DNA of 64,000 nucleotides, taken from NCBI GenBank assembly GCA_020161265.1, contig JAIUOC010000003.1:363024-427023 (forward strand), given 5' to 3'. A program made the translations under genes and the position numbers. Every line of letters begins with the position of its first letter. Positions within the stretch are counted from its first letter, which is position 1. The notes below the pieces were generated by a model that was given only the letters and a program-made list of their open reading frames with translations, ran no database searches and had not been told where the DNA came from. Positions 2,504 to 58,945 of the stretch are shown here, piece by piece. Source of the DNA: Chloroflexota bacterium. Lineage in GTDB: Bacteria > Chloroflexota > Chloroflexia > Chloroflexales > Herpetosiphonaceae.

Positions 2504-4309
2504 ATGGATGTGATGCTGGCACAAGCACCGAAACAATTGGGAAATTTGCGCCATTTAGAATTACGGCGCATGTTTCAATATGTCTATCCCTATCGTTGGC
2601 GCTTAGGCTTGGCGCTGCTGTGTTTGGCGGTTTCAAGTGGCATTGGCCTGGTTATGCCATTGGCAATTCGCAATTTGGTCGAAACCGTTAAAGATGCTTC
2701 AAGCACCGCCGCCTTAGATAACGTTGCGATTGGTTTGATGGGCGTATTTATTGCCCAAATGGTGTTTAACTATATTCAAGGCTATTTTTTGACCTACGTT
2801 GGCGAACGAGCAGTCGCCGACCTGCGAATTGAGGTTTATTCGCATTTACAACGGCTGTCATTGGCCTTTTTCAGCGAACGCCGCGTCGGTGAATTGACTT
2901 CGCGAGTCACCAACGATGTCACGGTGATTCAGGGTATCGGTACAAATGCGGTTGCCGCGTTTCTGCAAAATGGCATTACCTTTATTGGTAGTTTCATTAT
3001 GATGATTAATCTCAGTTGGCAACTAACTGCGATTACCCTATTGCTGATTCCCTTGTTGATTGTACTGGCGATTATCTATGGTCGCCGCATTCGCAATATG
3101 TCCACCGAAGTGCAAGATCGGATGGCTGAAGCCTCGTCGGTGCTCGAAGAAACCATCTCCGGCGTGCGCATTGTCCAATCATTTGCCCGTGAACCATACG
3201 AAGTTGAGCGATTTAGCGGAGCGATTGAGCATGCGTTTTCGGCCTCGATGCGCCGCACCAAAACCCGTGCTCAGTTTGTGCCAATTGTCTCGTTTTCAGG
3301 CTTTGGTGCATTGGTATTTGTGCTGTGGTTTGGCGGTCGCCAAGTATTAAATGGCACAATGCAGCTTGGCGATTTAATCGCCTTCTTGTTGTATGCCGCC
3401 GTGATTGCTGGCTCGTTGGGCACGTTTACCAGTTTGTATAGCCAATTGCAAGAGGCACTTGGTTCGACTGCCCGCGTATTCGGCATTTTGGATACCGCTC
3501 CCGAAATCGCCAGCAAAACCAATGCAATCAACTTACCACCAATTGAAGGCGAAATTTATTTAGAAGATGTATCGTTTAACTATGGCGAGGCCGCAACTCC
3601 AGTTTTGAGCAACATCAACCTCAAGGTTGAGCCAGGCGAAGTCATGGCGATTGTCGGGCCGAGTGGTTCAGGCAAATCAACCCTCGTTAATCTCATTCCG
3701 CGTTTTTACGATGTAACAGCGGGGCGGATTACGGTTGATGGTTTTGATATTCGCGATGTCGATTTGCCCTCGTTACGTTCACAAATTGGGATTGTGCCGC
3801 AAGAAACCTTATTATTTAGCGGTACGATTGCCGATAATATTCGTTATGGCAACCTTGATGCACCGATGGAAGCGGTAATTGAAGCCGCCAAAGCTGCCAA
3901 CGCCCACGAATTTATCAGCAATTTTGAGGGTGGTTACGAATCGATCGTTGGCGAACGTGGGATCAAACTCTCTGGTGGGCAACGCCAGCGCGTGGCAATT
4001 GCCCGAGCTTTGCTCAAAAACCCGCGCATTTTAATTCTCGATGAAGCAACATCGGCTATGGATAGCGAATCGGAAGGTTTGGTGCAAGAAGCCTTAGAAC
4101 GCTTGATGCAAGGTCGCACCACGTTTGTAATTGCCCATCGCCTGTCAACTGTCAAAAATGCCACCCGAATTGCCGTGATTGAAGCAGGCAAAGTGACCGA
4201 GCTTGGCAGCCATAGCGAACTTTTGGCCCAAGCTGGCACATACGCTCGTTTGTATCAATTGCAATTTGAAACCAACGAAAGTGCCGGATCTGTGCTAACA
4301 GAGTATTAA
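2504..4309 (+). CDS. ABC transporter, fused permease/ATP-binding protein (MsbA/multidrug exporter type)
   Basis: 601 aa. Six-TM N-terminal domain, Walker A GPSGSGKST, signature LSGGQRQR, Walker B ILILDEATSAMD. Alternative start at 2513. Confidence 0.85.
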   Translation: MDVMLAQAPKQLGNLRHLELRRMFQYVYPYRWRLGLALLCLAVSSGIGLVMPLAIRNLVETVKDASSTAALDNVAIGLMGVFIAQMVFNYIQGYFLTYVGERAVADLRIEVYSHLQRLSLAFFSERRVGELTSRVTNDVTVIQGIGTNAVAAFLQNGITFIGSFIMMINLSWQLTAITLLLIPLLIVLAIIYGRRIRNMSTEVQDRMAEASSVLEETISGVRIVQSFAREPYEVERFSGAIEHAFSASMRRTKTRAQFVPIVSFSGFGALVFVLWFGGRQVLNGTMQLGDLIAFLLYAAVIAGSLGTFTSLYSQLQEALGSTARVFGILDTAPEIASKTNAINLPPIEGEIYLEDVSFNYGEAATPVLSNINLKVEPGEVMAIVGPSGSGKSTLVNLIPRFYDVTAGRITVDGFDIRDVDLPSLRSQIGIVPQETLLFSGTIADNIRYGNLDAPMEAVIEAAKAANAHEFISNFEGGYESIVGERGIKLSGGQRQRVAIARALLKNPRILILDEATSAMDSESEGLVQEALERLMQGRTTFVIAHRLSTVKNATRIAVIEAGKVTELGSHSELLAQAGTYARLYQLQFETNESAGSVLTEY

Positions 4310-6900: not shown

Positions 6901-6948
6901 AAAACGCCCCTTGCCTAGATATTTTAGGTGAGGGGCGTTTCTTTAAGG
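6901..6948. terminator. rho-independent terminator hairpin (AACGCCCCT ... AGGGGCGTT followed by TCTTTAAGG) after lon, shared with the convergent Nudix gene
   Basis: 9-bp GC-rich inverted repeat at 6903-6911 and 6931-6939, followed by a T-rich tract. Confidence 0.5.
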
Positions 6949-6952
6949 ATGA

Positions 6953-7125
6953 ATTATGAGGGATGAGGGATGAAGTTGCGCTATACAACACAAAAGCAGA
7001 GTATTTAACGCAGAGAAACATAAGAGATCAGATGTCAGGAGTCAGGGGTCAGAGCTTTGGGATAAGCAACCTTCGCGATCTTCGCGTTCTTCGTGGTTTC
7101 AACTTTCGTACCCTGCGTTGCATAG
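6953..7125. repeat. mosaic intergenic repeat R1 (GGGATGA heptamers, CAGGGGTCAG module, CTTCGCG/CTTCGTG 9-nt periodic module)
   Basis: gagggatgagggatgaag at 6958-6975; gtcaggagtcaggggtcagag at 7033-7054; ccttcgcgatcttcgcgttcttcgtggtttcaac at 7070-7103. It is homologous to elements at 38828-38900 and 39469-39543. Confidence 0.6.
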
Positions 7126-23423: not shown

Positions 23424-23756
23424 ATGTTAAGTATGCTAAAGACTGTTTTGCTGGTTGATCCCGACTGGATCACCCGAACGCTCATGAGATATCACCTTCG
23501 CCGGGCAGGCTATACAGTCTACGAAGCCGATTCCTGCACTCTCGCGGCTCAACTGAACGAGCAATATCAGCCAGAATTTATCATCCTTGATGAAGCGATT
23601 TCAACCGAGCACAGCAATGCGCTCAATTGCCGCGATCATCAGAACTATATTTTGCTGACCGATCTGCCGCAACCCCGAACCACTGGCCGTTTGAGCTTAG
23701 CCAAGCCAATTACTGGCCATAATTTAATTAGCCAATTACAAGCCTATCGGGCATAG
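23424..23756 (+). CDS. single-domain receiver (CheY-like) protein, slightly atypical (D-P-D in place of the acidic pair)
   Basis: LLVDPD, phospho-acceptor position IILDE, LLTD, AKP. All the canonical receiver positions can be aligned. Confidence 0.5.
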   Translation: MLSMLKTVLLVDPDWITRTLMRYHLRRAGYTVYEADSCTLAAQLNEQYQPEFIILDEAISTEHSNALNCRDHQNYILLTDLPQPRTTGRLSLAKPITGHNLISQLQAYRA

Positions 23757-23759
23757 GCG

Positions 23760-23997
23760 CTAGGGGTCGGCTATCCGGCGCATAGTTTTGAGCCACGAAG
23801 AACACGCAAATTGTTTTTTGATCCACGAAGAGCACGAAGCACACGAAGGTTAGATTTTTTGCTGTGAATTGCCCGAAACATGTTCCGATAGCCCAAAGCC
23901 TATCGCCATTCAGATCTCTGCGCCTCTGCGTTGAATAGTGTGATCCTCAATTTTTGATGGTTGCTTTCATCCCTCATCCCTCATCCTTCATCCTTAC
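23760..23997. repeat. mosaic intergenic repeat R2 (CACGAAG modules, CTATAGC/CGATAGC module, CTCTGCG module, TCATCCC heptamer array)
   Basis: gagccacgaagaacacg...gatccacgaagagcacgaagcacacgaagg; ccgatagcccaaagcctatcgccat; tctctgcgcctctgcgtt; catccctcatccctcatccttcatcctta. Confidence 0.6.
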
Positions 23998-24138
23998 AAA
24001 TTACTTGCTTTAGTACGCTTGACAGTTGGGCTACCTTGCGACTATGCTAAGCTACGATTTGCTGCTTTAGAACGCGCCATTTGTGATGATTCAATGCTTG
24101 GTTGCTGCTCAATTGAGCCATACAACCATTATTGAATC

Positions 24139-34875: not shown

Positions 34876-35075
34876 GGAGCAGGGGTCAGAATTCAGGGGT
34901 TAGGCTTCAGGAAACACGGCTATAGGCGCTAGGCTAGCGGAACAATTTGTGGAATGACAATGATCTCAAAAAGCCAAAAGCCTATAGCCGCTAGCCTATG
35001 GATTAAATGCCGATCCCTCGCCCCCGGCATTCCACTAGTCCCTGATCCCTCGCCCCTCGTCCCTAGCCCCCTAAG
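34876..35075. repeat. mosaic intergenic repeat R3
   Basis: gggagcaggggtcagaattcaggggttagg; ggctataggcgctaggctagcgg ... aaaagccaaaagcctatagccgctagcctatgg; ccgatccctcgcccc...ccctgatccctcgcccctcgtccctagcccc. Confidence 0.6.
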
Positions 35076-35099
35076 CCACCGTATAATGGAGAACATTGC

Positions 35100-36623
35100 A
35101 TGCAGCGCCGACGATGGATATTAATCGCAATCAGCCTGACGCTGCTTCTAGCGAGTGCTGGCTTGAGTTTAGCTCGCACAACTGGCCTGTTGGATGACCC
35201 GAATTGCACAACCAGCGATTGTACGTTTTTACCGTTGGCCTTGAAAAATTCTAGTGAAATTACGCCAATGCCAACAAATGCGGCAACCGCAACCAGTGTG
35301 ATGCTCTCGCCAACTGCAACATCGAGCACTACCCCAACCGCCGCGCCAACCGCAACCAGTACCTCAACTAATGTGCCAACTGCGACGAACACCGCAACCG
35401 ATGTGCCAACCGCGACGAACACACCAACTGCTGTACCAACCGCAACCAGTACGCCAACCGACGTGCCAACTGCGACCAATACACCAACTGATGTGCCAAC
35501 CGCGACCAACATACCAACTGATGTGCCAACCGTGACCAACACACCAACCCATACATCAACGCCAACGAGTACATCAACCCATACATCAACGCCGACCAGC
35601 ACGGCTACGGCAACCCCACGTCCACCAACCACCACCCCAACCACGATTGTGGGTACGGCGACCCCAACCACACCGCCCAACTTCACACGGATTGTTTGGT
35701 CTACGGCTGTGCCAACACCATTTAGCTATCCTTTTGCGGCGGTTGAAGCTCAAGGCGCAGTGGTTGGCGGCAAATTGTATGTCTTTGGTGGCTTCGGTCA
35801 GCCTGGTTTATCGGGCGATACACCCTCGCGCTTGTCGAACGTGTATGATCCAGTGGCCAATACCTGGACAGCGATTGCGCCCTTGGAGCGAGGTTTGACT
35901 CACGTTGGTACTGCCACCGATGGTCAAAAGATCTTCCTTGTTGGTGGCTATATTGAAGATTTTGATGGAGTTGGCCAGATTTTCGGCTCACGGGTTTCGC
36001 GCTATTACGACACCGCCACCAATACCTACACCAACTTGCCGGTGATTCCGATTCAACGGGCGGCGGGCCAGCTGTATTATCTTGATCGGAAGTTGCATTA
36101 TGTTGGTGGAACCTATTACAAACAGGTTGATGTTGGCACGCATTTTGTGCTCGATTTGAATGATTTGGCGACTGGTTGGGTGACCCAGACCAACCAACTA
36201 ACCTATGCCGAGTTGCCCAATCCACGTCAACATGCTGGTGGGGTGGTGCTTGATGGCAAACTCTACTATATTGGCGGTCAGCATGGCCACGATGGTAGTT
36301 TAACCGTCGATAACGATGTGCATCGCTATGATCCCGCTACGAATATGTGGGAACAAATGGCCGATATTCCGTTGGCCTTGAACCATATTAGCCATTCGAC
36401 CTTGGCGCTTGGCGGTAAAATTTTCGTCTTTGCTGGCCAAACCACCAACGGAACTAAACATAATACGATTTATGTGTATGATCCGGCCACGAATACTTGG
36501 GCACAAATGCCTAACAACTTGCCAGCAACCCGTTATTCAGGCATTATTGGCGAGATTAATGGCACGTTGTATTTCACGACTGGCGGCGGAACCAACAGCT
36601 ATCGTGGAATTCCCACACCATAG
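35100..36623 (+). CDS. secreted/surface protein with signal anchor, Thr/Pro-rich repeat linker and C-terminal Kelch (galactose-oxidase-like) beta-propeller
   Basis: N-terminal hydrophobic segment. ([10 protein letters not shown])n linker. Kelch signatures [50 protein letters not shown]. Confidence 0.75.
35340..35601 (+). repeat. in-frame tandem repeat: about 7 x 30 bp (encoding [10 protein letters not shown]) followed by 2 x 27 bp (HTSTPTSTS)
   Basis: Direct reading: ccaactgatgtgccaaccgcgaccaacaca units with point variants. Confidence 0.8.
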
Positions 36624-36670
36624 CATTATTTTGCAGGGCGTTGGTCGCGTTTGGCGGCCAACGCAAAACT

Positions 36671-37726
36671 ATGAGTATCACGATCTATCCAATTCCGCGT
36701 TTGCTGGCAACCAACCCATATCTTGATTTGTTGTATGCGCCATTTGCTGCATGGCCTGATGTGCAGATTGCACGCCAGCCATTTGCTCAAACCTTGCGCC
36801 ATGGCTTGTTGCATGGCGGTCAGCGGGTGCTGCATTGGCACTTTTTTGATGAACTGACCCAGCAGCCCAGCCAAGCGGCAACTGCATTGCGTAGTATGAG
36901 CTTTATTGTGCTATTGCGTTTGCTGGCTTTGCGTGGAGCAAAATTGGTTTGGACGGCTCACAACTTGGAGCCACACGAATTGCGTTACCCCCAATGGGCG
37001 CAGCGTTGTTATCAGGCTATGGCGCAGGCGGCTGAGCAAATTATTGTACATTCGCAGGCCGCCGCCCAACTGCTCGATCAACGCTATCAGGTTGCCGCTA
37101 AAACCAACGTGATTGCCCATGGCTCGTATATCGGTGTCTATGGCGAAGCTTGGGATCAAGCGGCTGCCCGTGAGCAATTGCAACTAACGCCCAAAGGCTT
37201 TGTTGCGCTCAATCTTGGCACATTGCGTCCCTACAAAGGTGTGGAATTGTTGCTTGAGGCTTGGTCAGCCGAGCTTGGCCGCTTGCTGATTGTGGGTGCG
37301 GCCAAAGATCAACGCTATGCTGAGCAATTGCAACAACAGGCAACCAATCCTAGCATCACGCTACGGCCCCAGTTTATTGCCGATGCCCTTCTGCCTGCTT
37401 GGTTTGCCGCCTCCGATGTGGTCGTATTGCCCTATCGCAAAACCTTGACCTCAGGCATGTTGCTGGCAGCGCTTTCGTATGCCACGCCAGTGGTTGCGCC
37501 TGATTTGCCGCCAGTCCGCGAATTGATTCGCGATGGCGAGAATGGCTTTTTGTTTGAGGCCAACGATGTGGCTAGTTTACGCGCCGCTTTACACCGTGCC
37601 GCCGCCCATCCCGATCGACAAGCTTTGCGCCAAAATGCGCTCCAAACAGTTCAAGCGCTTGATTGGAGCCTGATTGCCAACCAAACTGCGGCAGTTTATC
37701 GCCGTTTATTCGAGAAACCCGCATGA
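36671..37726 (+). CDS. glycosyltransferase family 1 (GT4-like)
   Basis: Start MSITIYP. C-terminal GT1 motifs (VVLPYRKTLTSGMLLAALSYATPVVAPDLPPVRELIRDGENGFLFE). Confidence 0.8.
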   Translation: MSITIYPIPRLLATNPYLDLLYAPFAAWPDVQIARQPFAQTLRHGLLHGGQRVLHWHFFDELTQQPSQAATALRSMSFIVLLRLLALRGAKLVWTAHNLEPHELRYPQWAQRCYQAMAQAAEQIIVHSQAAAQLLDQRYQVAAKTNVIAHGSYIGVYGEAWDQAAAREQLQLTPKGFVALNLGTLRPYKGVELLLEAWSAELGRLLIVGAAKDQRYAEQLQQQATNPSITLRPQFIADALLPAWFAASDVVVLPYRKTLTSGMLLAALSYATPVVAPDLPPVRELIRDGENGFLFEANDVASLRAALHRAAAHPDRQALRQNALQTVQALDWSLIANQTAAVYRRLFEKPA

Positions 37727-38652
37727 TTCCAGGCCAAATTTCGATCATCATCGTGAGCTATAACAGCGCCGCACTATTGCCCGCTTGTTTTGCAAGCCTC
37801 GCCACGACCAACGACGACAATTATCAATTAATTGTGGTTGATAATGCTTCGAGCGATGGCTCTGCTGAGTTGGTACGTCAGCAGTATCCGCAGGTTCAGC
37901 TGATTGCCAATCAGCATAATCATGGCTTTGGTGCGGCATGTAATCAAGGTATGGCGGCGGCGACTGGCGAATATTTTTTATTTTTCAATCCCGATGTACA
38001 AATTACGCCCAATTGGCTGACACTCTTGCGCCAGCACCTAGCAGCCAATCCCCAAGCGGCAATTATTTGCCCAACCACCTTGTATCCCAATCAAGCGCCG
38101 CCAACCCGTCATGGTGTGGCGATCACGGCGGCTGTGCCAGGCTGTGCAATGCTTTTGCGGCGCAGCGCATGGCAAGCAATTGGCGGTTTTGACCCAGCTA
38201 TTTTCTTGTATTGGGAAGATACCGAGTTGTGTTGGCGGGCGTGGTTGTTGGGTTGGCAGGTGCTCGAAGATTTCGAGGCGCTGGTGGTACACGAGCGTGG
38301 TGGTAGCGGCGGCGGCCAGCGCTGGCTGGTCGAGAGCAGCAAGAATGGCTTGTATTGCTACCTGAAGTTGCGGCCTTGGTCGGCGGTTTTGGGCTATAGC
38401 CTGCGCATGCTGGCCAAAACGGCGATTGTAAGTTTGTGCCAGCGCAATCTGGCAATGCTGAATGTTTGGATTTGGCATATTCGTAATCTCAAGCAAACCC
38501 TCGCCACGCGCCGCAGCATTCAAGCCCAAATCAGCGCTGATCGCAGCGAAGTTGAGCGTTTGATCAAGCAGCATTTAGCGCGTGGCAAACGGGAACGCAA
38601 CGAAAATCAAAAGTCAAAAGGCAAAAGTCAGAAGGCAAAAGGCAAAAGTTAG
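37723..38652 (+). CDS. glycosyltransferase family 2, with a repeat-derived Lys-rich C-terminal tail
   Basis: ATGA overlap with GT1. IIIVSYNSAALL...VVDNASSDGS (GT2 DXD region). The last about 20 codons (RERNENQKSKGKSQKAKGKS) are encoded by a CAAAAG-type simple repeat. Confidence 0.8.
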   Translation: MIPGQISIIIVSYNSAALLPACFASLATTNDDNYQLIVVDNASSDGSAELVRQQYPQVQLIANQHNHGFGAACNQGMAAATGEYFLFFNPDVQITPNWLTLLRQHLAANPQAAIICPTTLYPNQAPPTRHGVAITAAVPGCAMLLRRSAWQAIGGFDPAIFLYWEDTELCWRAWLLGWQVLEDFEALVVHERGGSGGGQRWLVESSKNGLYCYLKLRPWSAVLGYSLRMLAKTAIVSLCQRNLAMLNVWIWHIRNLKQTLATRRSIQAQISADRSEVERLIKQHLARGKRERNENQKSKGKSQKAKGKS

Positions 38653-38662
38653 AAGGCAAAAG
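38603..38662. repeat. left arm of an inverted repeat pair (AAAATCAAAAGTCA...GAAGGCAAAAGG); partner at 39648-39677
   Basis: The reverse complement of 39648-39677 (ataaaatcaaaagtcagaaggcaaaaaaaa) matches this segment. Confidence 0.4.
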
Positions 38663-38935
38663 GATGAGACTGGATAGCGCAGAGACGCAGAGGATTCGAG
38701 GGGCTAGGATTCAGAATTTAACGGAGAGACGCAGAGGATTCGAGGGGCTAGGATTCAGGGGTCACAGGGGCTGGAAATTTAAGCATAATCATATAAATCT
38801 GGGTCAATCTGTGGCTAAAAATAAAACTTCGCGATCTTCGCGCCCTTCGTGGTTTCAACCCTCGCACCCTTCGTGTCCTTCATGCGCTTCGTGGATCGAT
38901 ATTCATTCGCTGGCCTGGGTTAATATTGAGGAGAT
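38653..38935. repeat. mosaic intergenic repeat R4, including a 45-bp direct duplication and the conserved CTTCGYG element
   Basis: agagacgcagaggattcgaggggctaggattcag occurs twice (38681-38714 and 38726-38759). cttcgcgatcttcgcgcccttcgtggtttcaaccctcgcacccttcgtgtccttcatgcgcttcgtggatcg at 38828-38900. Confidence 0.6.
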
Positions 38936-38939
38936 GTAG

Positions 38940-39443
38940 ATGAACATAACAATTGTTGATGGCTTTACTCCAACCAATGAGGCTGAAGTTGCGGCTTTTG
39001 AGCAAGAGTTGGGCTGTCGTCTGCCAGAAGATTACCGCGCTTTTTTGCTACAACATAACGGCGGTCAGCCTGAGCTAACAGTTTTTGATATGAATAGTAA
39101 CTTGCTGCCTGATGATCAAAGTATAATCCACTATTTTTTATCCTTAGACCCAGCAGCGGAATCCTCTGAAATTCGTCAAGTAATCAGAACATTTACAGAA
39201 TATGAGACGCGGATTCCACCAGAGCTTTTGCCAATTGCCCACGATCTTGGAGGCAACCTAATTTGCTTGGGAATTCGTGGCGAGCAGCGGGGCAAAGTTT
39301 ATTTTTGGGATCATGAATTTGAGCTAGAAACTGAAGAAGAAGGCGATCTGTATTACAACGTTTCGTGTTGTAGCCCTTCATTTCAAGCATTCGTTGATAG
39401 CTTGTTGCCTGAATCCTCGCTTGATGTTGACGAGGCAGCATAG
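38940..39443 (+). CDS. SMI1/KNR4 (SUKH-1) family protein, immunity-protein-like
   Basis: 167 aa. LPEDYRAFLLQHNGG, IGD-like LGGNLICLGIRGEQRGKVYFWDHE, acidic C-terminus. AT-richer than its surroundings. Confidence 0.75.
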   Translation: MNITIVDGFTPTNEAEVAAFEQELGCRLPEDYRAFLLQHNGGQPELTVFDMNSNLLPDDQSIIHYFLSLDPAAESSEIRQVIRTFTEYETRIPPELLPIAHDLGGNLICLGIRGEQRGKVYFWDHEFELETEEEGDLYYNVSCCSPSFQAFVDSLLPESSLDVDEAA

Positions 39444-39647
39444 AGATCGGCATGAGCTTTGGGTTACATAACCTTCGCGATCTTCGTGCCCTTCGTGGTT
39501 TCAACCCTTGCGCCCTTCGTGTCCTTCGTGCGCTTCGTGGATCAGAACGGATGGCGAGAGGCTAAAGGCACTTAATCTTCCGAAAAAAGTCCAATAGCCT
39601 ATCACCATCTATACTCTGCGCTACAACCCGCTCCTTATGTTCGATGT
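39444..39647. repeat. mosaic intergenic repeat R5 (second full copy of the conserved about 75-bp CTTCGYG element)
   Basis: gagctttgggttacataaccttcgcgatcttcgtgcccttcgtggtttcaacccttgcgcccttcgtgtccttcgtgcgcttcgtggatcag, then a CTATAGC/CTCTGCG module. Confidence 0.6.
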
Positions 39648-39677
39648 TTTTTTTGCCTTCTGACTTTTGATTTTATA
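39648..39677. repeat. right arm of the inverted repeat pair bounding the SUKH cassette
   Basis: ttttttttgccttctgacttttgattttat, overlapping the udk stop codon. Confidence 0.4.
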
Positions 39678-41406: not shown

Positions 41407-41473
41407 TTAACTAAGCAGCCAATTGCTAGGCGATTGGCTGCCCTCATCGATCACGCTGCACTGAGGAGCTTGT

Positions 41474-45510: not shown

Positions 45511-45712
45511 CAAAAACCCTGAATTATGCTAAGATGCAGCAATCAAATTTTTGGCTGCTGCATGGAGTCAAACTCGTCCATACACTCCACCCATCAATTG
45601 CTCCATCACCCACAGCAGCATGCTTCAATCTGCTACGTTTGCTAGAGAATCAAACGTTGGTAGCCACAATTGTTGTGTGAGTTGAATTCCATTTGGCTTG
45701 GAAGGAGCTACG

Positions 45713-47086
45713 ATGGGCCATGATCATGCGCTGGTTATCGGCGCAAGCATTAGCGGTTTAGCGACCGCGCATATCCTCAGCCACTATTTTGCTCAAGTAA
45801 CGATTATTGAACGTGATAGTTTGCCCGACTCGATTGAGGTTCGATCTGGTTTGCCGCAAGCTCGCCACCTGCATCTGTTGTTGATGCGCGGAGCGCGTGA
45901 GCTTGAAACGCTCTTTCCTGGCATTGGGCAAGAACTCGTGGCTCACGGCGCACAGTCGGTCGATTTGATGAATGATTATCGCTACTTGATGGCTGGTGGT
46001 TGGGCCAAACCGCATCAATCAGCCCATCGCACAATTTCGGCCAGCCGCCCGCTCTACGATTGGGTGCTGTTGCAGCGTTTACGCCAAAACCCCAAAATTC
46101 GGATCGAAACCCAAACCGATGTGCTTGGCTTGGTTGGGGATTTGCGCCATGTGCGGGGCATTAACACCAAGCGCCGCGATACTGGGGTTGAGCAACAATT
46201 TCTAGCCGAACTCTTGGTTGATTGTAGTGGGCGTTCATCCAAGCTTGATCAATGGCTACAAGCGCTGGGTTGCCAAGCAGTACCCGAAACCGTGATTGCC
46301 TCGAATGTTGGCTACTGCTCACGACTCTATGCCAAGCCCGAAGGCTGGAACGAATGGAAGGGCTTATTTGTGCGCCAGCGACCATTGGTTAATCCACGCG
46401 GCGCGATTTTAACCGAGATTGAAGGCAATCGCTGGATGGTGACCTGTGGTGGTTTTAATGAGGCCAAGCCACCCCTTGATGAGAGCGAATGGCTGAATTG
46501 GCTCAACCAATTGCGCTCGCCAATTTTGTATGAATTGTTGAGTAAGGCCCAGCCAATTAGCCCATTGGTTGGTTTTGGCCGTACCGAAAATCGCCAACGC
46601 CATTATGAGCAAATTAGCCTGCCTGCGGGAGTGGTGGCGTTGGGTGATGCTGTTTGTGCGTTTAATCCAATTTATGGACAAGGTATTAGCAATGCCACCT
46701 TGGGCGCGATCTTGCTGAGCCAGCATTTAAAAGAACAAGATCGGGCTTCGGCAGCCTGGGGTCAGCGCTTTCAACAAGCACTCGCTAAAAGCAATCAATT
46801 TCCTTGGAGCATTGCGGTGGGCGAAGATGCCCGCTATAACGCCAGCGTCAAGCGTTCGTTTGGCGCAACTCTGCTGCGCAACTACTTCGACCAAATTAAC
46901 CTAGCATCAAGCAATAATCCGGTTGTGCTCAACCGCTTCACGCCGATTGTGCATATGACTGGCAATCCCAGTGGCTTACTGCACCCAGCGATGATCTGGA
47001 ATGTTATTAAAGGTCGCTTGAAGCCCCAAACGACCAACCCAACGCCCTCGATCCCTACCATTCTCAGCGCTAGCCAAGGAGCGTAA
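45713..47086 (+). CDS. class A FAD-dependent monooxygenase-like flavoprotein, paralog 1 of 3
   Basis: AAGGAG RBS. GxGxxG (VIGASISGL), DG-type motif (LVDCSGRSSKL), GD motif (LGDAVCAFNPIYGQGIS). Confidence 0.75.
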   Translation: MGHDHALVIGASISGLATAHILSHYFAQVTIIERDSLPDSIEVRSGLPQARHLHLLLMRGARELETLFPGIGQELVAHGAQSVDLMNDYRYLMAGGWAKPHQSAHRTISASRPLYDWVLLQRLRQNPKIRIETQTDVLGLVGDLRHVRGINTKRRDTGVEQQFLAELLVDCSGRSSKLDQWLQALGCQAVPETVIASNVGYCSRLYAKPEGWNEWKGLFVRQRPLVNPRGAILTEIEGNRWMVTCGGFNEAKPPLDESEWLNWLNQLRSPILYELLSKAQPISPLVGFGRTENRQRHYEQISLPAGVVALGDAVCAFNPIYGQGISNATLGAILLSQHLKEQDRASAAWGQRFQQALAKSNQFPWSIAVGEDARYNASVKRSFGATLLRNYFDQINLASSNNPVVLNRFTPIVHMTGNPSGLLHPAMIWNVIKGRLKPQTTNPTPSIPTILSASQGA

Positions 47087-47088
47087 CC

Positions 47089-48450
47089 ATGCTACAAGAT
47101 CATGCAATTGTGATTGGAGCCAGTATCAGCGGCTTGATTACCGCTCATATGCTGAGCCACCATTATGGTCGAGTCAGTGTGCTCGAACGTGATAGCTTGC
47201 CCGAGGCTGGCGATTTTCGCGCGGGCGTGCCCCAAGGTCGCCATGTGCATTTGTTGCTGATTCGCGGCGCACGTGAGCTGGAAACGCTTTTTCCAGGCAT
47301 CAACCAAGAACTGCAAGCTCTTGGGGCACAAGCCGTCGATATGATCAACGATTGTCGCTATTACCTCAAAAATGGCTGGACAGTACCTCAGCCAACCGAA
47401 TTGAAAACGCTCTCGGCAACTCGCCCTTTGTTTGATTGGGCAATTCGGCGGCGCTTATTGCAAAACCCCAAGATTCAGTTTTTGGCCCAACACGATGCCC
47501 TGAATCTGATTGGCAATAGCCGTCATATTCAAGGGGTGCAGGTGCGCAATCGCCAAGATGGCAGCGAACAGAGCTTGCATGCTGATCTGGTTGTCGATGC
47601 CAGCGGGCGCAATTCCAAATTGGCGGAATGGTTGGGCGAGCTTGGTTGTGGCAAAGTTAGCGAAACTGTGCTTGATGCCAAACTTGGCTATACTTCGCGG
47701 CTCTATGCCAAGCCCGAAGGTTGGAAAGAATGGAAAGGCCTGTTTGTGATGCAACAGCCGCCGACCATTCCCAAAGGTGCGATTTTGCTCGAAGTTGAGG
47801 GCAATCGCTGGATTGTGACTGGCGGTGGGGTCAATCATGCCAAGCCACCAACCGATGAAGCTGGTTTTATGCAATGGCTGCGCGAATTGCCCTCGCCAAT
47901 TTTGGCCGATTTATTGAGTAAATCGCAGCCGCTTAGCCCAACCAGTGGCTATGGTCGTACCGAAAATCGCCAACGCCACTACGAGCGTATGCACCTGCCA
48001 GCCGGAGTAATTGCCTTGGGTGATGCCGTTTGTGCCTTTAATCCGGTGTATGGGCAAGGTATTAGCACCGCCACCTTGGGGGCAATCTTGCTTGGTACAC
48101 ATTTAAAAGAGCAAGATCGTGGCTCGGCAGCATGGGGCCAGCGGTTCCAACAAGCCTTAGCCAAGAACAATCAATTCCCTTGGGAAATGGCGAGCGGCGA
48201 GGATTCGCGTTATGATTCATCATTCAAACGCCCATTTTTCAGCAAGCTGATTGCGCCCTATTTTGATCAAATTAATCAGGCCAGTTTGAATAGCAACGTG
48301 GTGTTCACTCAATTTATTAAAACGATTCACCTGATCGACAATCCGAATGCATTGTTTCATCCACGGGTGTTTATCCCCGTGCTGCTGAGCAAAATTCGGC
48401 CTAAATATTCTGATGCAGTGCCAAACTTGCCTTTGCAGGTCAACGTATAG
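47089..48450 (+). CDS. class A FAD-dependent monooxygenase-like flavoprotein, paralog 2 of 3 (about 65% identical to paralog 1)
   Basis: Same three motifs (VIGASISGL; VVDASGRNSKL; LGDAVCAFNPVYGQGIS). Starts 2 nt after the paralog-1 stop. Confidence 0.75.
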   Translation: MLQDHAIVIGASISGLITAHMLSHHYGRVSVLERDSLPEAGDFRAGVPQGRHVHLLLIRGARELETLFPGINQELQALGAQAVDMINDCRYYLKNGWTVPQPTELKTLSATRPLFDWAIRRRLLQNPKIQFLAQHDALNLIGNSRHIQGVQVRNRQDGSEQSLHADLVVDASGRNSKLAEWLGELGCGKVSETVLDAKLGYTSRLYAKPEGWKEWKGLFVMQQPPTIPKGAILLEVEGNRWIVTGGGVNHAKPPTDEAGFMQWLRELPSPILADLLSKSQPLSPTSGYGRTENRQRHYERMHLPAGVIALGDAVCAFNPVYGQGISTATLGAILLGTHLKEQDRGSAAWGQRFQQALAKNNQFPWEMASGEDSRYDSSFKRPFFSKLIAPYFDQINQASLNSNVVFTQFIKTIHLIDNPNALFHPRVFIPVLLSKIRPKYSDAVPNLPLQVNV

Positions 48451-48524
48451 CATAGGCAACTGAATCAAGCCCTGCTATACTACTAGAATAGGCAGGAGTA
48501 CATTTCAGATTTGGGAGGTGTGCT

Positions 48525-49883
48525 ATGAGACGAGACCATGCGATTGTGATCGGGGCCAGCATCGGTGGATTATTGAGTGCCCGCGTGTTGAGTGATGTGT
48601 ATGCCAAAGTGACGATTTTGGAGCGCGATACGTTGCCCGATGGGGTGCAATTTCGGGCAGGCGTGCCGCAAGGTCGCCAATTGCACTTGCTGCTGATGCG
48701 CGGCTTGCTCGAATTAGAAAAACTGTTCCCCAAATTGCGCGAAGATATGAAGGCGCTTGGCGGCAACGAGCTGGATCTGATGAACGATTGCCGCTATTTA
48801 TTTGCGGCAGGCTGGGCCGAACCACGACCCTCGGATTATCGCAGCATCATCGCCACCCGCCCCTTGTTCGATGCAGCGATTCTTGGGCGGATTCGCCAAA
48901 TTCCCAATATTGAAATTCAAACTCGCCAAGAAGTGACGGATTTGCTCTTTCACGGGCGGCAAGTTGTCGGGGTCAAGCTGCGCAATCGTGATACTGGCGA
49001 GCAGCATGAACTTAACGCCAACTTGGTTGTCGATGCGGCTGGCCGCCCATCCAAGCTGCCCGAATGGCTAGAACAACATCAATTTGGGCGCGTCAAAGAG
49101 ACCATTTACAAATCGGATGTGGGTTATGCCACCAGAATGTACACCGCGCCAGCCGATTGGCAAGGCTGGCCAGCGATCTTTGTGATGCCGATGCCGCCGC
49201 ATATTCGCCATGGTGCAACCTTCCTTAAAGTTGAAAACGATCAATGGCTCTTGACGATTGGCGGAGTTGGCAGCCAGCGCCCACCAACCGATAGCGCTGA
49301 GTTTGAGGCTTGGCTGGCGCGGATGCGCACACCATTGATTGCTGAAATTACCCAGAAATTTACGCCTGCCAGCCAAGTGTATGGCTATGCCAAAACCGAA
49401 AATCGTTGGGTGCATTACGAACAACTACCCGTTATGCCCGCTGGCCTGATTGCTATTGCCGATAGCGTGTGTGCCTTGAATCCAATTTATGGCCAAGGCA
49501 TCACCAATACTGCCATGAGCACGCAGGTTTTGGCCAAGCATTTGCAACGCGAAGGCATTGGCAGCGCACCTTGGGCCTTGAGTTTCCAAAAAGCCTTGGC
49601 ACGCCGCAACAAAGCGGGCTGGCTCACCACCATCAGCGAAGATTCACGGCTGGCTGATACGCCAACCTATCGCCCAATCTTGCCGATTCGCGTGCTGCAA
49701 TGGTATAGCGATAAAGTGAATTTGGCGGCGGCGGGCAATCGGGCTGCTACCAACGCAATGGTTGGTGCGATTCATATGATTGGCTCAGCTGCGAGCTTAT
49801 TTACGCCCAAAGTATTGCTTGCCGCCTCGCGCTTTTTCCGTTCACAACCGCCAAGCAGTGTGCCAGCAGCACCCAATAAATAA
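48525..49883 (+). CDS. class A FAD-dependent monooxygenase-like flavoprotein, paralog 3 of 3 (more divergent)
   Basis: GGGAGG RBS. VIGASIGGL; VVDAAGRPSKL; IADSVCALNPIYGQGIT. Confidence 0.75.
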   Translation: MRRDHAIVIGASIGGLLSARVLSDVYAKVTILERDTLPDGVQFRAGVPQGRQLHLLLMRGLLELEKLFPKLREDMKALGGNELDLMNDCRYLFAAGWAEPRPSDYRSIIATRPLFDAAILGRIRQIPNIEIQTRQEVTDLLFHGRQVVGVKLRNRDTGEQHELNANLVVDAAGRPSKLPEWLEQHQFGRVKETIYKSDVGYATRMYTAPADWQGWPAIFVMPMPPHIRHGATFLKVENDQWLLTIGGVGSQRPPTDSAEFEAWLARMRTPLIAEITQKFTPASQVYGYAKTENRWVHYEQLPVMPAGLIAIADSVCALNPIYGQGITNTAMSTQVLAKHLQREGIGSAPWALSFQKALARRNKAGWLTTISEDSRLADTPTYRPILPIRVLQWYSDKVNLAAAGNRAATNAMVGAIHMIGSAASLFTPKVLLAASRFFRSQPPSSVPAAPNK

Positions 49884-52284: not shown

Positions 52285-52470
52285 ACTTATGAGGGATGAA
52301 ATTTGGTATTTAACGTCGCGAAAATATGGATGAACATAATTCGTGAAATTCGTGGCTAATTGGAATATCAAAAGCCAAAAGCTTATAGTCATTCTTCGTG
52401 TCCTTCGTGGATCGAAAACGCCCAGTCCCCGACCTCCAATAACCGATCCCCAGTTAAACAACAACACGCC
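52285..52470. repeat. mosaic intergenic repeat R6
   Basis: tatgagggatgaaa; aaaagccaaaagcttatagtcattcttcgtgtccttcgtggatcg; cccagtccccgacctccaataaccgatcccc. Confidence 0.55.
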
Positions 52471-52493
52471 ATGAAACTTCATAGCGTGTGATT

Positions 52494-52584
52494 TGGCGGG
52501 TGGAGAGGGATTCGAACCCTCGAGAGCTTTGACACCCTACGGCATTTCCAGTGCCGCGCACTCGACCAACTATGCGACCCACCC
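52494..52584 (-). tRNA. tRNA-Ser (anticodon GGA), class II with an 18-nt variable arm, CCA encoded
   Basis: Reverse complement GGGTGGGTCGCATAGTTGGTCGAGTGCGCGGCACTGGAAATGCCG...GAGGGTTCGAATCCCTCTCCACCCGCCA. Acceptor, D, anticodon (CGGCA/CTGGAAA/TGCCG) and T arms all fold. T-loop TTCGAAT. Confidence 0.85.
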
Positions 52585-52613
52585 GTGCGCCGCGCATTAT
52601 ACCAAAGAATAGC

Positions 52614-52970
52614 TTAGCAGGCAACGCCGATGATTTGCTGAATCAGCCCTTGAATTTGATTGAGGGTAAAGGGTTTGGCTAGGAAGTAGGGTTGTTGATG
52701 TAAGGGGAATTGAGCACGCACATCATCTTCGCTATGTCCACTCATCAGTACAACTGGCACATTACTCAACCGTTGCATCTCGCGACATAAGGCCACCCCA
52801 GGCTCATCGGGCAACTCAAAATCCACCACCACTGCTTCCAACGTTCGCTCATGACAGATGGCACGCGCTGCCCTCACACTCTCAGCCTCGCAAGTTGCCA
52901 CGTCTATCCGTGCTAGGGCTGCTGCCACAAACGCACGAATAAACGGCGAATCATCGACAACTAAGACCAT
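52614..52970 (-). CDS. single-domain response regulator receiver protein
   Basis: VLVVDDSPFIR...VVVDFELPDEPG...LMSGHSEDD...AKP. Confidence 0.75.
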   Translation of the reverse strand: MVLVVDDSPFIRAFVAAALARIDVATCEAESVRAARAICHERTLEAVVVDFELPDEPGVALCREMQRLSNVPVVLMSGHSEDDVRAQFPLHQQPYFLAKPFTLNQIQGLIQQIIGVAC

Positions 52971-53049
52971 ACACAGGTTCTCCTACATGGAGTAGTATCC
53001 TTTGACTATAGTATACCGTAGTTTTCAACCACGCAAACAATCAGCAATT

Positions 53050-53285
53050 TAGCCACGAACTGAAATCACGAAGTATTCGAAGGGGTCAGGATTCAGGGAC
53101 GAGGGGGTCAGATTTGAATTAACAAACCCAATCAGCAATCCTGACTCCTGATCGCTGGCCCCTGGCCCCTAAATCCTCTCTGCGCCTCTGCGTTAAAATC
53201 CCAATCCCCGACAACCGATCCCCAACCCCTTTGTTCTATATTTTCATCCTTCATCCCTCATCCTTCATCCTTACCCAGATTGAGC
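53050..53285. repeat. mosaic intergenic repeat R7
   Basis: agccacgaactgaaatcacgaag; ggggtcaggattcagggacgagggggtcag; ctctctgcgcctctgcgtt; cccaatccccgacaaccgatccccaacccc; catccttcatccctcatccttcatcctta. Confidence 0.6.
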
Positions 53286-58681: not shown

Positions 58682-58734
58682 ACAACATTACCTCATTGTA
58701 ATACGTGGAGATTGGTTGTCGGGAATCGGTCGTT

Positions 58735-58945
58735 TTGATCCACGAAGGACACGAAGGGAGATTAGGCTATCGACTGATGGCTATCGGCTTTTGGAGTAGA
58801 GAATTTTGAAATGATTAAAATATTCCGATAGCCTATAGCCCATAGCCATTAATCCTCTGCGCTAAATGCCGCTCCCTAAATCCCTATATTCTCTGCTGTT
58901 AACTTCATCCCTCATCCTTCATCCTTCATCCCTTCGTGCTGTCAT
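58735..58945. repeat. mosaic intergenic repeat R8
   Basis: gatccacgaaggacacgaagggag; ctatcgactgatggctatcgg; ccgatagcctatagcccatagccat; aatcctctgcgct; catccctcatccttcatccttcatccc. Confidence 0.6.

Follow-up and report, generated by a model that had tools for sequence, protein, structure and literature searches.

Mosaic intergenic blocks assembled from 7- and 9-nt repeat modules in Herpetosiphon

The DNA analysed here, a stretch of 64,000 nt referred to as the window, lies on a contig of a metagenome-assembled genome (MAG) whose source genus is Herpetosiphon, in line with the Chloroflexota origin that had been suspected, and is 94% identical to H. aurantiacus DSM 785. It contains 32 gaps between genes, with 5,224 intergenic and 58,392 coding positions. 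A preliminary description had named eight of these gaps, leaving 24 others, as sites of repeats built from the same small modules. The modules lie where they had been placed, only the edges of blocks 4, 7 and 8 being slightly off, and all eight regions are intergenic, non-coding and made from common short modules. We refer to the modules by letters, with A for CTTCGTG-NN at a 9-nt period, B for TCATCCY, C for CTCTGCG and D for 7-nt units of the ATAGCC type; others are E, F, G and K.

The focal block 2 (23742-23997) is located between a gene for a receiver-like protein of 107-110 aa and cheW. It comprises two A arrays on the minus strand (23790-23849), the second of which reads TTTTGATCCACGAAGAGCACGAAGCACACGAAGG and has a GGATC-AAAA head, followed on the plus strand by a D array CCGATAGCCCAAAGCCTATCGCC (23885-23907), a C module CTCTGCGCCTCTGCGTTGAA (23916-23935) and, at the outer block edge, a B array of four units plus TTAC (23965-23997). 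Outside the repeat, a promoter-like site for cheW (TTGACA-18-TATGCT, 24019-24048, plus strand) is invariant across four aligned species, and the block is positioned upstream of this conserved -35/-10 site and not within the 5' UTR.

The other seven blocks occur in various genetic contexts. Block 1 (6945-7103) lies in the gap where lon and a NUDIX gene converge. Its parts are a B array AAGGATGAATTATGAGGGATGAGGGATGAAG (6945-6975), a C-like module (6997-7019) and an E array GTCAGGAGTCAGGGGTCAGAG (7034-7054), all three inverted, and then A' CTTCGCGATCTTCGCGTTCTTCGTGGTTTCAAC (7071-7103), an array whose head overlaps the NUDIX stop codon. Block 3 (34879-35071), upstream of a Kelch-repeat gene, consists of an inverted E array (34879-34911), an inverted-D/D pair (34918-34940 and 34969-35001) and E arrays at 35010-35025 and 35040-35071. 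Block 4 (38603-38899, start corrected to 38603) begins with a K heptamer array (38603-38667) that doubles as the last ~10 codons of a GT2 gene; in three genomes, the array stretch 38603-38652 forms the Lys-rich final codons of this glycosyltransferase gene. Inverted C and E modules, duplicated in tandem with a 44-nt unit (38675-38774), come next, and a G array AATCTGGGTCAATCTGTGGCTAAAAA (38796-38821) is then followed by A' (38827-38859) and A (38860-38899). Block 5 (39473-39674), in the convergent gap between a SUKH gene and a PRK gene, starts with A' (39473-39505) and A (39506-39547), followed by D, first inverted (39553-39569) and then not (39591-39606), one C unit (39614-39621) and finally K as an inverted array (39651-39674). 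Block 6 (52289-52451), between a DUF3224 gene and tRNA-Ser, carries inverted B (52289-52301), G' AATTCGTGAAATTCGTGGCTAA (52338-52359), D (52369-52390), A CTTCGTGTCCTTCGTGGATCGAAAA (52394-52418) and E (52421-52451). Block 7 (53029-53274, start corrected to 53029) occupies a divergent gap with inverted A-like (53029-53073), inverted E (53082-53111), E (53140-53169), C (53178-53198) and again E (53200-53229), and its B array (53242-53274) adjoins the extended -10-like sequence TGGTACAAT. Block 8 (58733-58938, edges corrected), also in a divergent gap, contains inverted A TTTTGATCCACGAAGGACACGAAGGG (58733-58758), an inverted-D/D pair (58765-58794 and 58825-58847), C (58854-58866) and, at the end, a B array with a single A unit behind it (58903-58938). 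In the orthologous gap of H. geysericola, the module order of block 8 is kept, with different copy numbers and extra modules.

The blocks measure 160-300 nt in the window and reach ~550 nt in relatives. At least seven types of unit, repeating every 7 or 9 nt, make up their arrays, which hold 2-5 units each. About half of the types have the 9-nt period, with a 7+2 structure, and the 7-nt array types between genes are TCATCCY, ATAGCCN, GAYCCCC and CTATGYT. TCATCCY arrays were located at 6960-6973 (minus strand) and at 23967-23994, 53244-53271 and 58905-58932 (plus strand), CTCTGCG pairs at 23916-23935 and 53178-53198 and, inverted, at 38675-38774, and nine CTTCGYG-NN arrays of 2-3 units keep an exact 9-nt period; ATAGCC-type and GAYCCCC/GGGGTCAGG-type arrays are present in either orientation. 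In the A units the 7-nt core is constant and the 2-nt spacer is limited to pyrimidines, with identical spacers in 7 of 54 neighbouring pairs, compared to 9.8 expected if they were independent. Arrays of E, F and B jointly form long C/U-rich, G-poor stretches.

These modules are strongly concentrated between genes. Counted as canonical 7-mers, CACGAAG/CTTCGTG occurs 19 times in intergenic and twice in coding positions (~85-fold), the excess being ~75-fold for CGCAGAG and ~49-fold for GAGGGAT, and CTTCGTGNNCTTCGTGGATC gave six matches at ≤2 mismatches versus none in 100 dinucleotide shuffles. Modules cover 22-36% of the eight named gaps, 7% of the coding DNA and 0-20% of the other 24 gaps, where values above 12% are confined to three short gaps of 29-58 nt. 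Both this intergenic enrichment and the bimodal distribution among gaps were counted in favour of a repeat family. Enrichment extends beyond the named regions: a sample of 43 other 8-kb loci, drawn from five Herpetosiphon species, contained 87 gaps of ≥100 nt without the search pattern, and 18 of these were module-rich. In this genome about a quarter of the longer gaps are occupied by blocks, and in Herpetosiphon at large the share of longer gaps bearing a block is roughly a fifth to a third.

One family from shared modules, in varying order and orientation, had been proposed; the family and the variation stand, but the arrangement is not free, as module order and relative orientation follow a preferred syntax. 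The most frequent neighbours are A+A+ (28), A+E+ (11), D+A+ (7), F+B+ (6) and C+B+ (5), and the order b-K-a-a'-g-D-C-g'-D-E-F-B, whole or partial, recurs at the focal gap in eight genomes. The (TCATCCY)n array frequently caps the outer block edge, with unique DNA beyond. With respect to gene direction, CTTCGYG has no strand bias (59 sense, 66 antisense) and similar densities per kb in tandem (5.0), divergent (5.1) and convergent (7.5) gaps; strand bias is small or absent for A, C, D, E (20:13) and F in Herpetosiphon, and B is the only biased module (40 sense versus 15 antisense in tandem gaps). Rough inspection of 13 DSM 785 loci with known coordinates revealed no consistent orientation relative to replichore polarity.

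The focal gap was compared among eight genomes, one of them from an uncultured relative. Its length varies from 351 to 686 nt, and a block is kept in all eight, which could point to some usefulness. The block interior (23757-23966) matches DSM 785 at only 56% identity, in an alignment containing 73 gap columns, as against 93%, 97%, 99% and 97% for the flanking segments, among them the B array at the edge (97%) and the cheW promoter-like site with its 5' UTR (23998-24138; 99%). Indels amount to 9, 18 or 27 nt in the 9-nt arrays and to 7 or 14 nt in the 7-nt arrays, and one difference between genomes is a 139-nt internal segmental duplication. Inverted copies of TCAAGGATGAATTATGAGGGATGA delimit the focal block in four species, and inverted B arrays also enclose one 243-nt block in L079. 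A block of this kind occupies the orthologous site in the finished genome of DSM 785 (L130) and therefore the repeat blocks are not an assembly artefact.

Blocks also coincide with rearrangements, which, like the hypervariability of the arrays, goes beyond what had been seen from the window. Three metagenome contigs (L141-L143) encode proteins identical to those of DSM 785 and are not the type-strain record itself. In the aurantiacus-like contig L142, a 3.8-kb segment (window 35076-38884) is inverted, with ends at the edge of block 3 (35076) and in block 4 (38884), and in L143 a 0.66-kb segment (52389-53044) is inverted, with ends in block 6 (52389) and block 7 (53044-53228). The SMI1/KNR4 (SUKH) gene at 38940-39443 lies between two direct-repeat copies of block sequence of 74 nt (38824-38897 and 39470-39543, both on the plus strand, 93% identical). 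It is likewise flanked in H. gulosus, by 135-nt copies of 96% identity, and L142 lacks both the gene and the second repeat copy; the flanking copies are more alike inside one genome than they are across genomes. Four of five breakpoints fall in block-bearing gaps, for which a binomial estimate gives ~0.016 by gap number (8/32) and ~0.10 by share of intergenic length (41%); the link rests on few events, and breakpoints survive mostly between genes anyway.

Outside Herpetosiphon, a pattern scan for CTTCGTGNN...GGATC arrays matched at least 120 loci, where ~17 chance matches are expected in the whole collection. Among the matches listed, identical arrays span more than eight phyla, with occurrences in Caldilineaceae, Anaerolineae, Planctomycetota, Opitutales, Acidobacteriota, Entotheonella, Nitrospirota, Bacteroidota and others. 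Additional units are close by in most of the ~80 listed matches from outside Herpetosiphon, a count that takes in viral contigs. In other phyla, a CACGAAG...CTTCGTG hairpin often occupies an entire convergent gap (L003, L032, L033, L035, L039, L078 and L121); these forms start with GATCCACGAAG, differ by lineage in loops and flanks, and in some copies are followed by a T run. Arrays of (TCATCCY)n were found in more than 120 viral contigs, where they often end 5-10 nt upstream of an ATG or form hairpins together with GGATGA arrays. No co-occurrence of A and B was found outside Herpetosiphon, so there is no shared module set. Given this spread, the earlier suggestion of an independent case is doubtful. 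That the repeats seemed undescribed agrees with a literature search on the unit strings, in DNA and RNA spelling, and on Herpetosiphon repeats, which retrieved no description of these sequences. A 'mobile promoter' common to H. aurantiacus and three distant genera is mentioned in PMC3488235.

Comparison with known systems places the blocks near several of them. Heptamer repeats such as GGGGA(C/T)T in Nostoc and GGGAATC in Xanthomonas are on record (PMC4692102), and an LSSR survey is cited in PMC4692102 and PMC4679880. The proposed similarity to cyanobacterial STRRs holds in kind, with tandem 7-nt units, an intergenic excess, occurrence on either strand, a length that varies between close relatives and slippage as the proposed source in both. 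Membership fails, however: tandem copies of the STRR units CCCCAGT, TTGGTCA and CAACAGT, as well as of GGGAATC, GGGGATT, GGGGACT and TAACTGA, are absent from the window, arrays here have 2-4 units, with several types chained in set order and half of them at a 9-nt period, and the host is a predator of the Chloroflexota and neither a heterocystous cyanobacterium nor a xanthomonad. TAACTGA direct repeats are found a few nucleotides upstream of start codons in marine Beggiatoaceae, cyanobacteria and Bacteroidetes (PMC4679880). They share with our repeats a short unit common to distant lineages without an evident mechanism of transfer, and the viral TCATCCY arrays are likewise often near start codons, but the unit sequence differs, there are many unit types here instead of one, and Herpetosiphon arrays are not beside start codons, the focal site being upstream of a promoter.

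The BIMEs of E. coli are intergenic mosaics of REP units and short motifs, non-coding, present in multiple copies and substrates of rearrangement; a REP is an imperfect palindrome of ~35-40 nt with a GTAG-type head, is specific to a species or genus and has a cognate RAYT (Y1 HUH) transposase in the genome, typically with the repeats on both sides of its gene. Our blocks resemble them as intergenic clusters of a small motif set in alternating orientation, in mosaic with other motifs, and the hairpins between convergent genes in other phyla look REP-like. They differ in consisting of 7-9 nt tandem units in direct arrays, without a GTAG-headed palindrome of 35-40 nt, and in a CTTCGTG array that spans phyla. 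Among the neighbours of the arrays in 129 loci and the window, no protein family recurs and no RAYT-type transposase was seen. NIMEs of Neisseria and SNRs of Deinococcus radiodurans are mosaic, intergenic and bounded by inverted repeats, with units of 20-150 bp. The blocks share with them mosaicism, intergenic location, inverted-repeat bounds in part of the copies, and a link to recombination and variation in gene content, but their arrays are of 7-9 bp and the sequences are unrelated.

Several other identities were considered and rejected. A CRISPR array is incompatible with 7-9 nt units placed head to tail or 2 nt apart, as opposed to repeats of 24-48 nt with unique spacers, and by eye only 7 nt are shared with type I-C repeat ends. 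With respect to the DnaA-box consensus TTATCCACA, only the terminal unit TGATCCACG reaches 7/9, with mismatches at positions 2 and 9, and the inner units share nothing but CAC. Inspection by eye led us to drop parS half-sites, sigma-54 and ECF promoter spacing, (ARN)n Hfq motifs and the elemental pause consensus; an IHF site fits only the junction of A with inverted C (GATCAATCCGTTAAC), and pairing of TCATCCC with the 16S rRNA sequence GGGGAUGA is at chance level. CsrA would find GGA motifs on the purine strands, but the missing strand bias argues against it, and since GGG and GG units are mixed in most GGGATGA arrays, a canonical G-quadruplex is not conserved.

The blocks act neither as genes nor as structured RNAs, and the family appears to be tied to no single promoter or terminator function. 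With a probability of about one half, we regard them as repeated DNA of the BIME, NIME or STRR kind, forming a Herpetosiphon-wide family that changes by slippage and ectopic recombination. The gain and loss of whole units in arrays has the pattern of replication slippage, and the duplication, replacement and homogenisation of module groups among copies points to ectopic recombination or gene conversion. The same modules are present in either orientation at many gaps, and blocks are found at inversion ends and on both sides of a small accessory gene that is present or absent between close relatives. BIMEs, NIMEs and STRRs are thought to persist by self-propagation and to be tolerated only between genes, and the same may apply here. 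Slippage and drift on their own leave unexplained both the constant 7-nt cores with differing 2-nt spacers and the recurrence of CTTCGTGNN...GGATC and TCATCCY arrays across phyla and phages.

These two features bear on an alternative that we consider unlikely, in which the arrays are rows of double-stranded DNA binding sites for one or more sequence-specific proteins, and the blocks organise or insulate the chromosome locally while the protein keeps the units constant. Candidates for such a protein would be a small helix-turn-helix protein oligomerising head to tail, a nucleoid-associated protein or a domesticated transposase. Binding sites would account for a conserved core next to a spacer restricted only to pyrimidines, in which adjacent spacers are not copies of each other, for block orientation independent of gene direction in all types of gap, as expected of a function at the DNA level, for retention of the focal block in every genome compared and for the identical arrays in distant phyla. 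On the other hand, no candidate protein was found: an all-against-all BLASTP of 1,110 ORFs from 130 sequences (129 loci and the window) yielded no recurrent neighbour family near the arrays except generic ABC ATPases, histidine kinases and SDRs. Moreover, the modules at a given gap differ between genomes of 94% identity, which is hard to reconcile with a locus-specific role, the separate occurrence of A and B in other organisms speaks against a shared 'system', and units spaced by 9 bp do not stay in phase with the helical turn of DNA. In a broader and equally doubtful version, (CTTCGTG-YY)n-GGATC and (TCATCCY)n would be recognition arrays for conserved trans-acting factors, protein or RNP, in many phyla and phages, a pan-bacterial REP-like or leader class that became concatenated into mosaics in Herpetosiphon.

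Somewhat less probable is an action of the modules in RNA. In this case pyrimidine-rich arrays would work as elements of 5' leaders or of translation or would load Rho, and inverted pairs would form hairpins that terminate transcription or stabilise mRNA, as REP elements do. The sense bias of TCATCCY in tandem gaps, the viral arrays just before ATG or in hairpins with GGATGA, the hairpins in convergent gaps of other phyla, some with a T run, and the C/U-rich, G-poor stretches formed by E, F and B would all suit such a role, but the near lack of strand bias in A, C, D, E and F and the location of the focal block upstream of the promoter, outside the 5' UTR, would not. Folding of the focal block was no better than that of shuffled sequence (z = +0.30 for the plus and +1.75 for the minus strand). 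The focal region contains two terminator-like sites versus 1.0 expected, which is chance level, one at the left end of block 2 (23766-23779) and the other outside; the repeat arrays are part of neither, and an intrinsic terminator was rejected on these grounds. Rfam recovered only tRNA-Ser from the window, both with the gathering threshold and with the cutoff relaxed to E = 1, and at gathering no match to the hairpins in 18 hairpin-type loci, where together with the window only tRNA, rRNA and TPP were detected. Likewise, spacer positions pair in 49 of 66 cases in the hairpins, without excess over what purine-purine versus pyrimidine-pyrimidine composition alone yields. A structured ncRNA or riboswitch was rejected for lack of an Rfam family, of excess folding and of sequence conservation in close relatives. 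A sub-threshold Rfam match to sX4 overlaps the tRNA.

Less likely again, the blocks could be MITE-like elements, or the worn ends of one, with arrays recognised as terminal or subterminal repeats by a transposase acting in trans. In favour of this are the inverted TCAAGGATGAATTATGAGGGATGA copies at the focal block in four species, the Opitutales blocks with inverted CTCTGTG arrays as boundaries, and the inverted CTTCGTG arrays on either side of a 66-aa ORF, putatively HicB-like as judged from its sequence, in a Dehalococcoidia MAG; in addition, B arrays are mostly at a block edge with unique DNA outside, and 4 of the 9 viral contigs among the listed matches to the A-array pattern have further units nearby. 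Nevertheless, all inspected ends lack a target-site duplication, no recurrent transposase accompanies the arrays in the 129 loci and the window, all eight focal gaps are filled and thus provide no empty site, and many blocks, including those of the window, have one terminal array or none. Hairpin loops and flanks differ between lineages, and BLAST of the focal block and of one hairpin copy against 72,556 plasmids found no match. Finally, pieces of unannotated coding genes or an artefact of metagenome binning are effectively refuted: one heptamer array does encode the end of a glycosyltransferase (38603-38652) in three genomes and the window is a MAG contig, but the blocks are free of overlapping ORFs of 100 aa or more, indels between species are of 7 and 9 nt and up to hundreds of nt, GGGATGA arrays read in successive frames contain TGA stop codons, and the same blocks recur in six isolate genomes of Herpetosiphon (80-94% identity), one of them the finished chromosome of DSM 785.

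Short-period intergenic repeats of the STRR type have been known for decades. Herpetosiphon adds a culturable and dense example, whose dynamics comprise unit slippage, module shuffling, inversions and the gain or loss of cassettes. The identical nonamer and heptamer arrays across phyla and phages offer a concrete handle on a possible recognition by something conserved, for which (CTTCGTGTC)3-CTTCGTGGATCAAAA, (TCATCCY)4 and CTCTGCGCCTCTGCGTTAAA would be suitable oligonucleotides. In Chloroflexota genomes, misassembly and breaks of synteny are likely to concentrate at the blocks, which merit masking or annotation.

Direct reading of the sequence located all modules named in the preliminary description, both in the focal region (23760-23997) and in the seven other intergenic regions of the window, referred to here as blocks. 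Tandem Repeats Finder picked up the TCATCCC arrays (7-nt period) and the CTTCGYG arrays (9-nt period), and a repeat finder linked the blocks of the window to each other in both orientations. The k-mer enrichment proposed as a check was observed within the window, where the 5.2 kb of intergenic DNA contain 19 copies of the canonical 7-mer CACGAAG/CTTCGTG and the 58.4 kb of coding DNA only two; CGCAGAG, GAGGGAT, AGGGATG and other intergenic 7-mers exceed their coding frequency 25- to 110-fold. The 20-mer CTTCGTGNNCTTCGTGGATC gave six window matches at up to two mismatches compared to none in 100 shuffles, and modules cover 22-36% of exactly the eight named gaps compared to 7% of coding DNA. In the other 24 gaps, coverage is 0-20% and exceeds 12% only in three short ones (29-58 nt). 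The module family in the window is far beyond chance. In a sample of Herpetosiphon loci, 87 gaps measuring 100 nt or more lacked the search pattern, and 18 of these were also module-rich.

The possibility that the modules belong to unannotated genes was excluded, save for one array that forms the C-terminal tail of a gene: ORFs of 100 aa or longer are absent from the blocks, and the genes around them were confirmed by Pfam (Lon, NUDIX, CheW, HATPase, Kelch, GT2, SUKH, PRK and DUF3224). The array in question, a heptamer array at 38603-38667 (AAGTCAAAAGGCAAAAG...), extends into the end of the GT2 glycosyltransferase ORF, whose last ~10, Lys-rich codons it supplies (...QKSKGKSQKAKGKS, stop), likewise in H. 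gulosus and in an aurantiacus-like metagenome contig, so that translation can reach into the edge of a block. An artefact of binning or assembly is excluded as well, since the window matches the finished chromosome of H. aurantiacus DSM 785 with 94% identity over 6.4 kb and its gene order is collinear with H. gulosus. In a scan of one genome per species, the matches listed for the 20-mer include H. aurantiacus, H. geysericola, H. giganteus, H. llansteffanensis and H. sp. NSE202. The DSM 785 accession numbers of CheW (ABX03370), the orthologue of the gene at 59030 (ABX03447) and the caspase (ABX03473), compared with the gene order of the window, imply that in DSM 785 the 24-59 kb segment has been broken up, with part of it inverted, despite the 94% DNA identity.

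The order of the modules, named by their pyrimidine-rich strand, is constrained and not free. A arrays (CTTCGTG-NN, 9-nt period) terminate in GGATC-AAAA, A' arrays (CTTCGCG-NN) in GGTTTC, and G and G' arrays (AATCTGTG-N and AATTCGTG-N) in GGCTAAAA; the further types are B (TCATCCY), C (CTCTGCG(C)CTCTGCGTTAAA), D and K (ATAGCCN and AAAGTCA), E (GAYCCCC and CTGACCC) and F (CTATGYT). Arrays in the window are short, with 2-4 units. The commonest neighbours at up to 60 nt in 44 Herpetosiphon sequences were A+A+ (28), A+ then E+ (11), D+ then A+ (7), F+ then B+ and E+ then F+ (6 each), and C+ then B+ and G+ then A+ (5 each). The outer block edge is usually a B array with unique DNA outside, which reads AAGGATGAA(G/T)(G/T)ATGAGGGATGAGGGATGA from the outside inwards. 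Within A arrays, the 7-nt core is invariant and the two spacer bases are mainly pyrimidines; spacers were the same in 7 of 54 neighbouring unit pairs compared to 9.8 expected for independent draws, i.e. without excess identity between neighbours.

For the focal block, cheW orthologues were taken from a 90% cluster and the loci of eight genomes were fetched and compared. The gap between the receiver-like gene and cheW measures 351-686 nt and retains the same module order, whole or partial, in all eight, with varying copy numbers, duplications and losses. Between the window and DSM 785, identity is 93% for the upstream receiver-like gene, 56% with 73 gap columns for the block interior (23757-23966), 97% for the B array, 99% for the following 141 nt with a TTGACA-18-TATGCT site and the 5' UTR, and 97% for cheW. 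This promoter-like site was also recovered by a pattern scan and is invariant in a four-species alignment, in which indels of the focal gap measure 9, 18 or 27 nt in 9-nt arrays and 7 or 14 nt in 7-nt arrays. H. llansteffanensis carries a 139-nt internal duplication of the C-a-g module set and NSE202 ~150 nt extra; the block is identical in a metagenome contig 99% identical to DSM 785, and a 94% relative has F units at the place of the window's B array. The gaps orthologous to blocks 6 (52289-52451) and 8 (58733-58938) vary likewise in H. llansteffanensis and H. geysericola. The blocks are hypervariable, and their change proceeds by whole-unit and module-level events.

Position and strand were assessed in the window and 43 further Herpetosiphon loci. 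CTTCGYG density per kb was 5.0 in tandem, 5.1 in divergent and 7.5 in convergent gaps, with 59 sense and 66 antisense copies in tandem gaps; the C, D, E, F and G modules were near-balanced too (E 20:13), and only TCATCCY was strand-biased (40 sense, 15 antisense). The occurrence in all gap types, the strand balance and the 18 extra module-rich gaps speak against most modules being dedicated to promoter or terminator function. As RNA, the focal block folded no better than shuffles on either strand (z = +0.30 and +1.75) and had no Rfam match. A weak Rfam match to the proteobacterial sRNA sX4 at 52428-52596 (-) (28.8 bits compared to a gathering threshold of 70, E = 0.041) lies over the tRNA-Ser(GGA) at 52494-52584, which adjoins block 6, and is most likely due to chance.

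Regarding REARRANGEMENTS, comparisons were made with aurantiacus-like contigs whose proteins are identical to those of DSM 785. The blocks are located at inversion ends and around a cassette indel. One inversion spans 35076-38884 (Kelch, GT4 and GT2) and ends at the edge of block 3 (34879-35071) and inside the A array of block 4 (38603-38899); another spans 52389-53044 (tRNA-Ser and a receiver gene) and ends within blocks 6 and 7 (53029-53274). The segment 38885-39682, comprising the end of block 4, an SMI1/KNR4 gene and block 5 (39473-39674), is absent from the aurantiacus-like contig. By domain match, the gene at 38940-39443, also present in H. gulosus, belongs to the SMI1/KNR4 (SUKH-1) family, which is known for immunity proteins in polymorphic toxin systems. 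On either side of the gene lie direct repeats of block sequence (74 nt/93% in the window, 135 nt/96% in H. gulosus), and a 24-nt inverted pair (38603-38626 and 39651-39674) flanks it as well. The flanking copies share their unit structure within a genome and differ between genomes, which points to homogenisation or repeated recombination, and the cassette looks like a gain or loss via recombination between blocks. Four of five synteny breaks fall in block-bearing gaps (binomial estimate ~0.016 by gap number, ~0.10 by intergenic length), and their link to the blocks is suggestive only.

The Kelch-repeat ORF (35100-36623) contains, at 35271-35616, 7-8 copies of a 30-nt tandem repeat (CCAACCGATGTGCCAACCGCGACCAACACA) not related to the intergenic modules, which presumably encodes a Pro/Thr-rich linker. 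At 45698-49883, downstream of a LodA-like gene, three adjoining paralogous FAD-dependent monooxygenase-like genes (~68-77% pairwise DNA identity) are kept in H. gulosus and the aurantiacus-like contig. A different Herpetosiphon repeat family is represented by a 143-nt insertion in H. gulosus (locus L144, 10924-11067; inverted arms CCCTCACYCCC...GGGTGAGGG), which is not in the window (corresponding position 41433), and by 3350-3470 of the aurantiacus-like contig L143. Its 7-mers AGAGGGG, GAGAGGG and GGAGAGG are the most enriched intergenic ones across Herpetosiphon loci, and with one filled and one empty site visible this family is more plausible as a MITE than the mosaic blocks are. A 2012 survey of 'putative mobile promoters' (PMC3488235) describes one upstream element common to H. 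aurantiacus, Carboxydothermus hydrogenoformans, Deinococcus maricopensis and Thermotoga lettingae.

A genome scan for the A-array pattern (18 specified bases) returned at least 120 loci, compared to ~17 chance matches expected by our own arithmetic in the whole 596-Gb collection. Among the matches listed, ~70 loci lie outside Herpetosiphon, in Caldilineaceae, Anaerolineae, Thermoflexales, Roseiflexus, Dehalococcoidia, Planctomycetota, Opitutales, Acidobacteriota, Nitrospirota, Bacteroidota, Sumerlaeota, Fibrobacteria, Desulfobacterota, Entotheonella and Thiobacillus; most of these have extra units within 120 nt, and ~20 have at least three inverted units forming a hairpin, GATCCACGAAG(RR-CACGAAG)n, loop, (CTTCGTG-YY)n-CTTCGTGGATC. 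A few matches, e.g. L044, are plainly coding coincidences. The hairpins frequently occupy convergent gene gaps, their loops vary by lineage, and their spacers pair no more than predicted from composition; in Tepidisphaeraceae, a CTTCGTG hairpin is nested inside ATTCGTG arrays. Opitutales are a second lineage having mosaic blocks: MAGs L029, L098, L115 and L026 carry intergenic stretches of up to ~800 nt of many 6-9-nt arrays (GATCAC, CCTAATT, CATTATTC, CTGGTTT, CAACCTT, CTCTGTGG), with inverted CTCTGTG arrays at the boundaries and one CTTCGTG x3-GGATC array within. TCATCCY x3 had at least 120 matches in viral contigs; among those listed, GC is 48-73%, arrays reach 13 or more units, and they often stop 5-10 nt upstream of ATG or pair with GGATGA arrays. 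Only four viral matches were obtained for the C module. Outside Herpetosiphon, A and B did not co-occur (no B array in 0.5 Mb, two redundant A arrays in 1.09 Mb), no recurrent gene family was found beside the arrays in 129 loci and the window, and neither the focal block nor a hairpin copy matched any of 72,556 plasmids. A Dehalococcoidia MAG (L037) has a GTAG-headed hairpin typical of REP at 2695-2735 (GTAGGGACAGGTCTTCAGACCTGTCC), in a small cassette with a 66-aa ORF, judged HicB-like from its sequence, between inverted CTTCGTG arrays. In a Thermoflexus MAG (L129), a large palindrome at 3350-3830 opposes ~five 30-33-nt higher-order repeats, each with ATCCACGAAGGGCACGAAGG, to four inverted repeats with TTCGTGTCCTTCGTGGATCAATTTT. 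Several other MAG loci show enrichment of CCCTGTC/GACAGGG 7-mers between genes.

The blocks lie between genes, are non-coding, follow an ordered syntax, are strand-indifferent except for TCATCCY, and are without structure as RNA. We consider it about an even bet (roughly 0.5) that they constitute a repeat family that maintains itself in the manner of BIMEs, NIMEs and STRRs, with slippage and ectopic recombination as its drivers. A functional reading stays alive, because the cores are constant with free spacers and two units recur across phyla: on these grounds the arrays might, with some but rather low probability, be bound by a protein, and somewhat less probably the modules might act at the RNA level in leaders or terminators. 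An origin from MITEs is improbable: target duplications were not seen at the ends inspected, nor empty sites for the focal gap, nor a recurrent transposase near the arrays. In their defining features the blocks depart from the REP, MITE, CRISPR, terminator and structured-RNA classes, and by kind they group with mosaic intergenic elements. The likeness to cyanobacterial STRR repeats drawn in the preliminary description holds by kind, also with long simple-sequence repeats, but not by sequence, with no match to the heptamer families tested; the array unit strings were not found in the literature searched. Most worth following up are the arrays shared across phyla.
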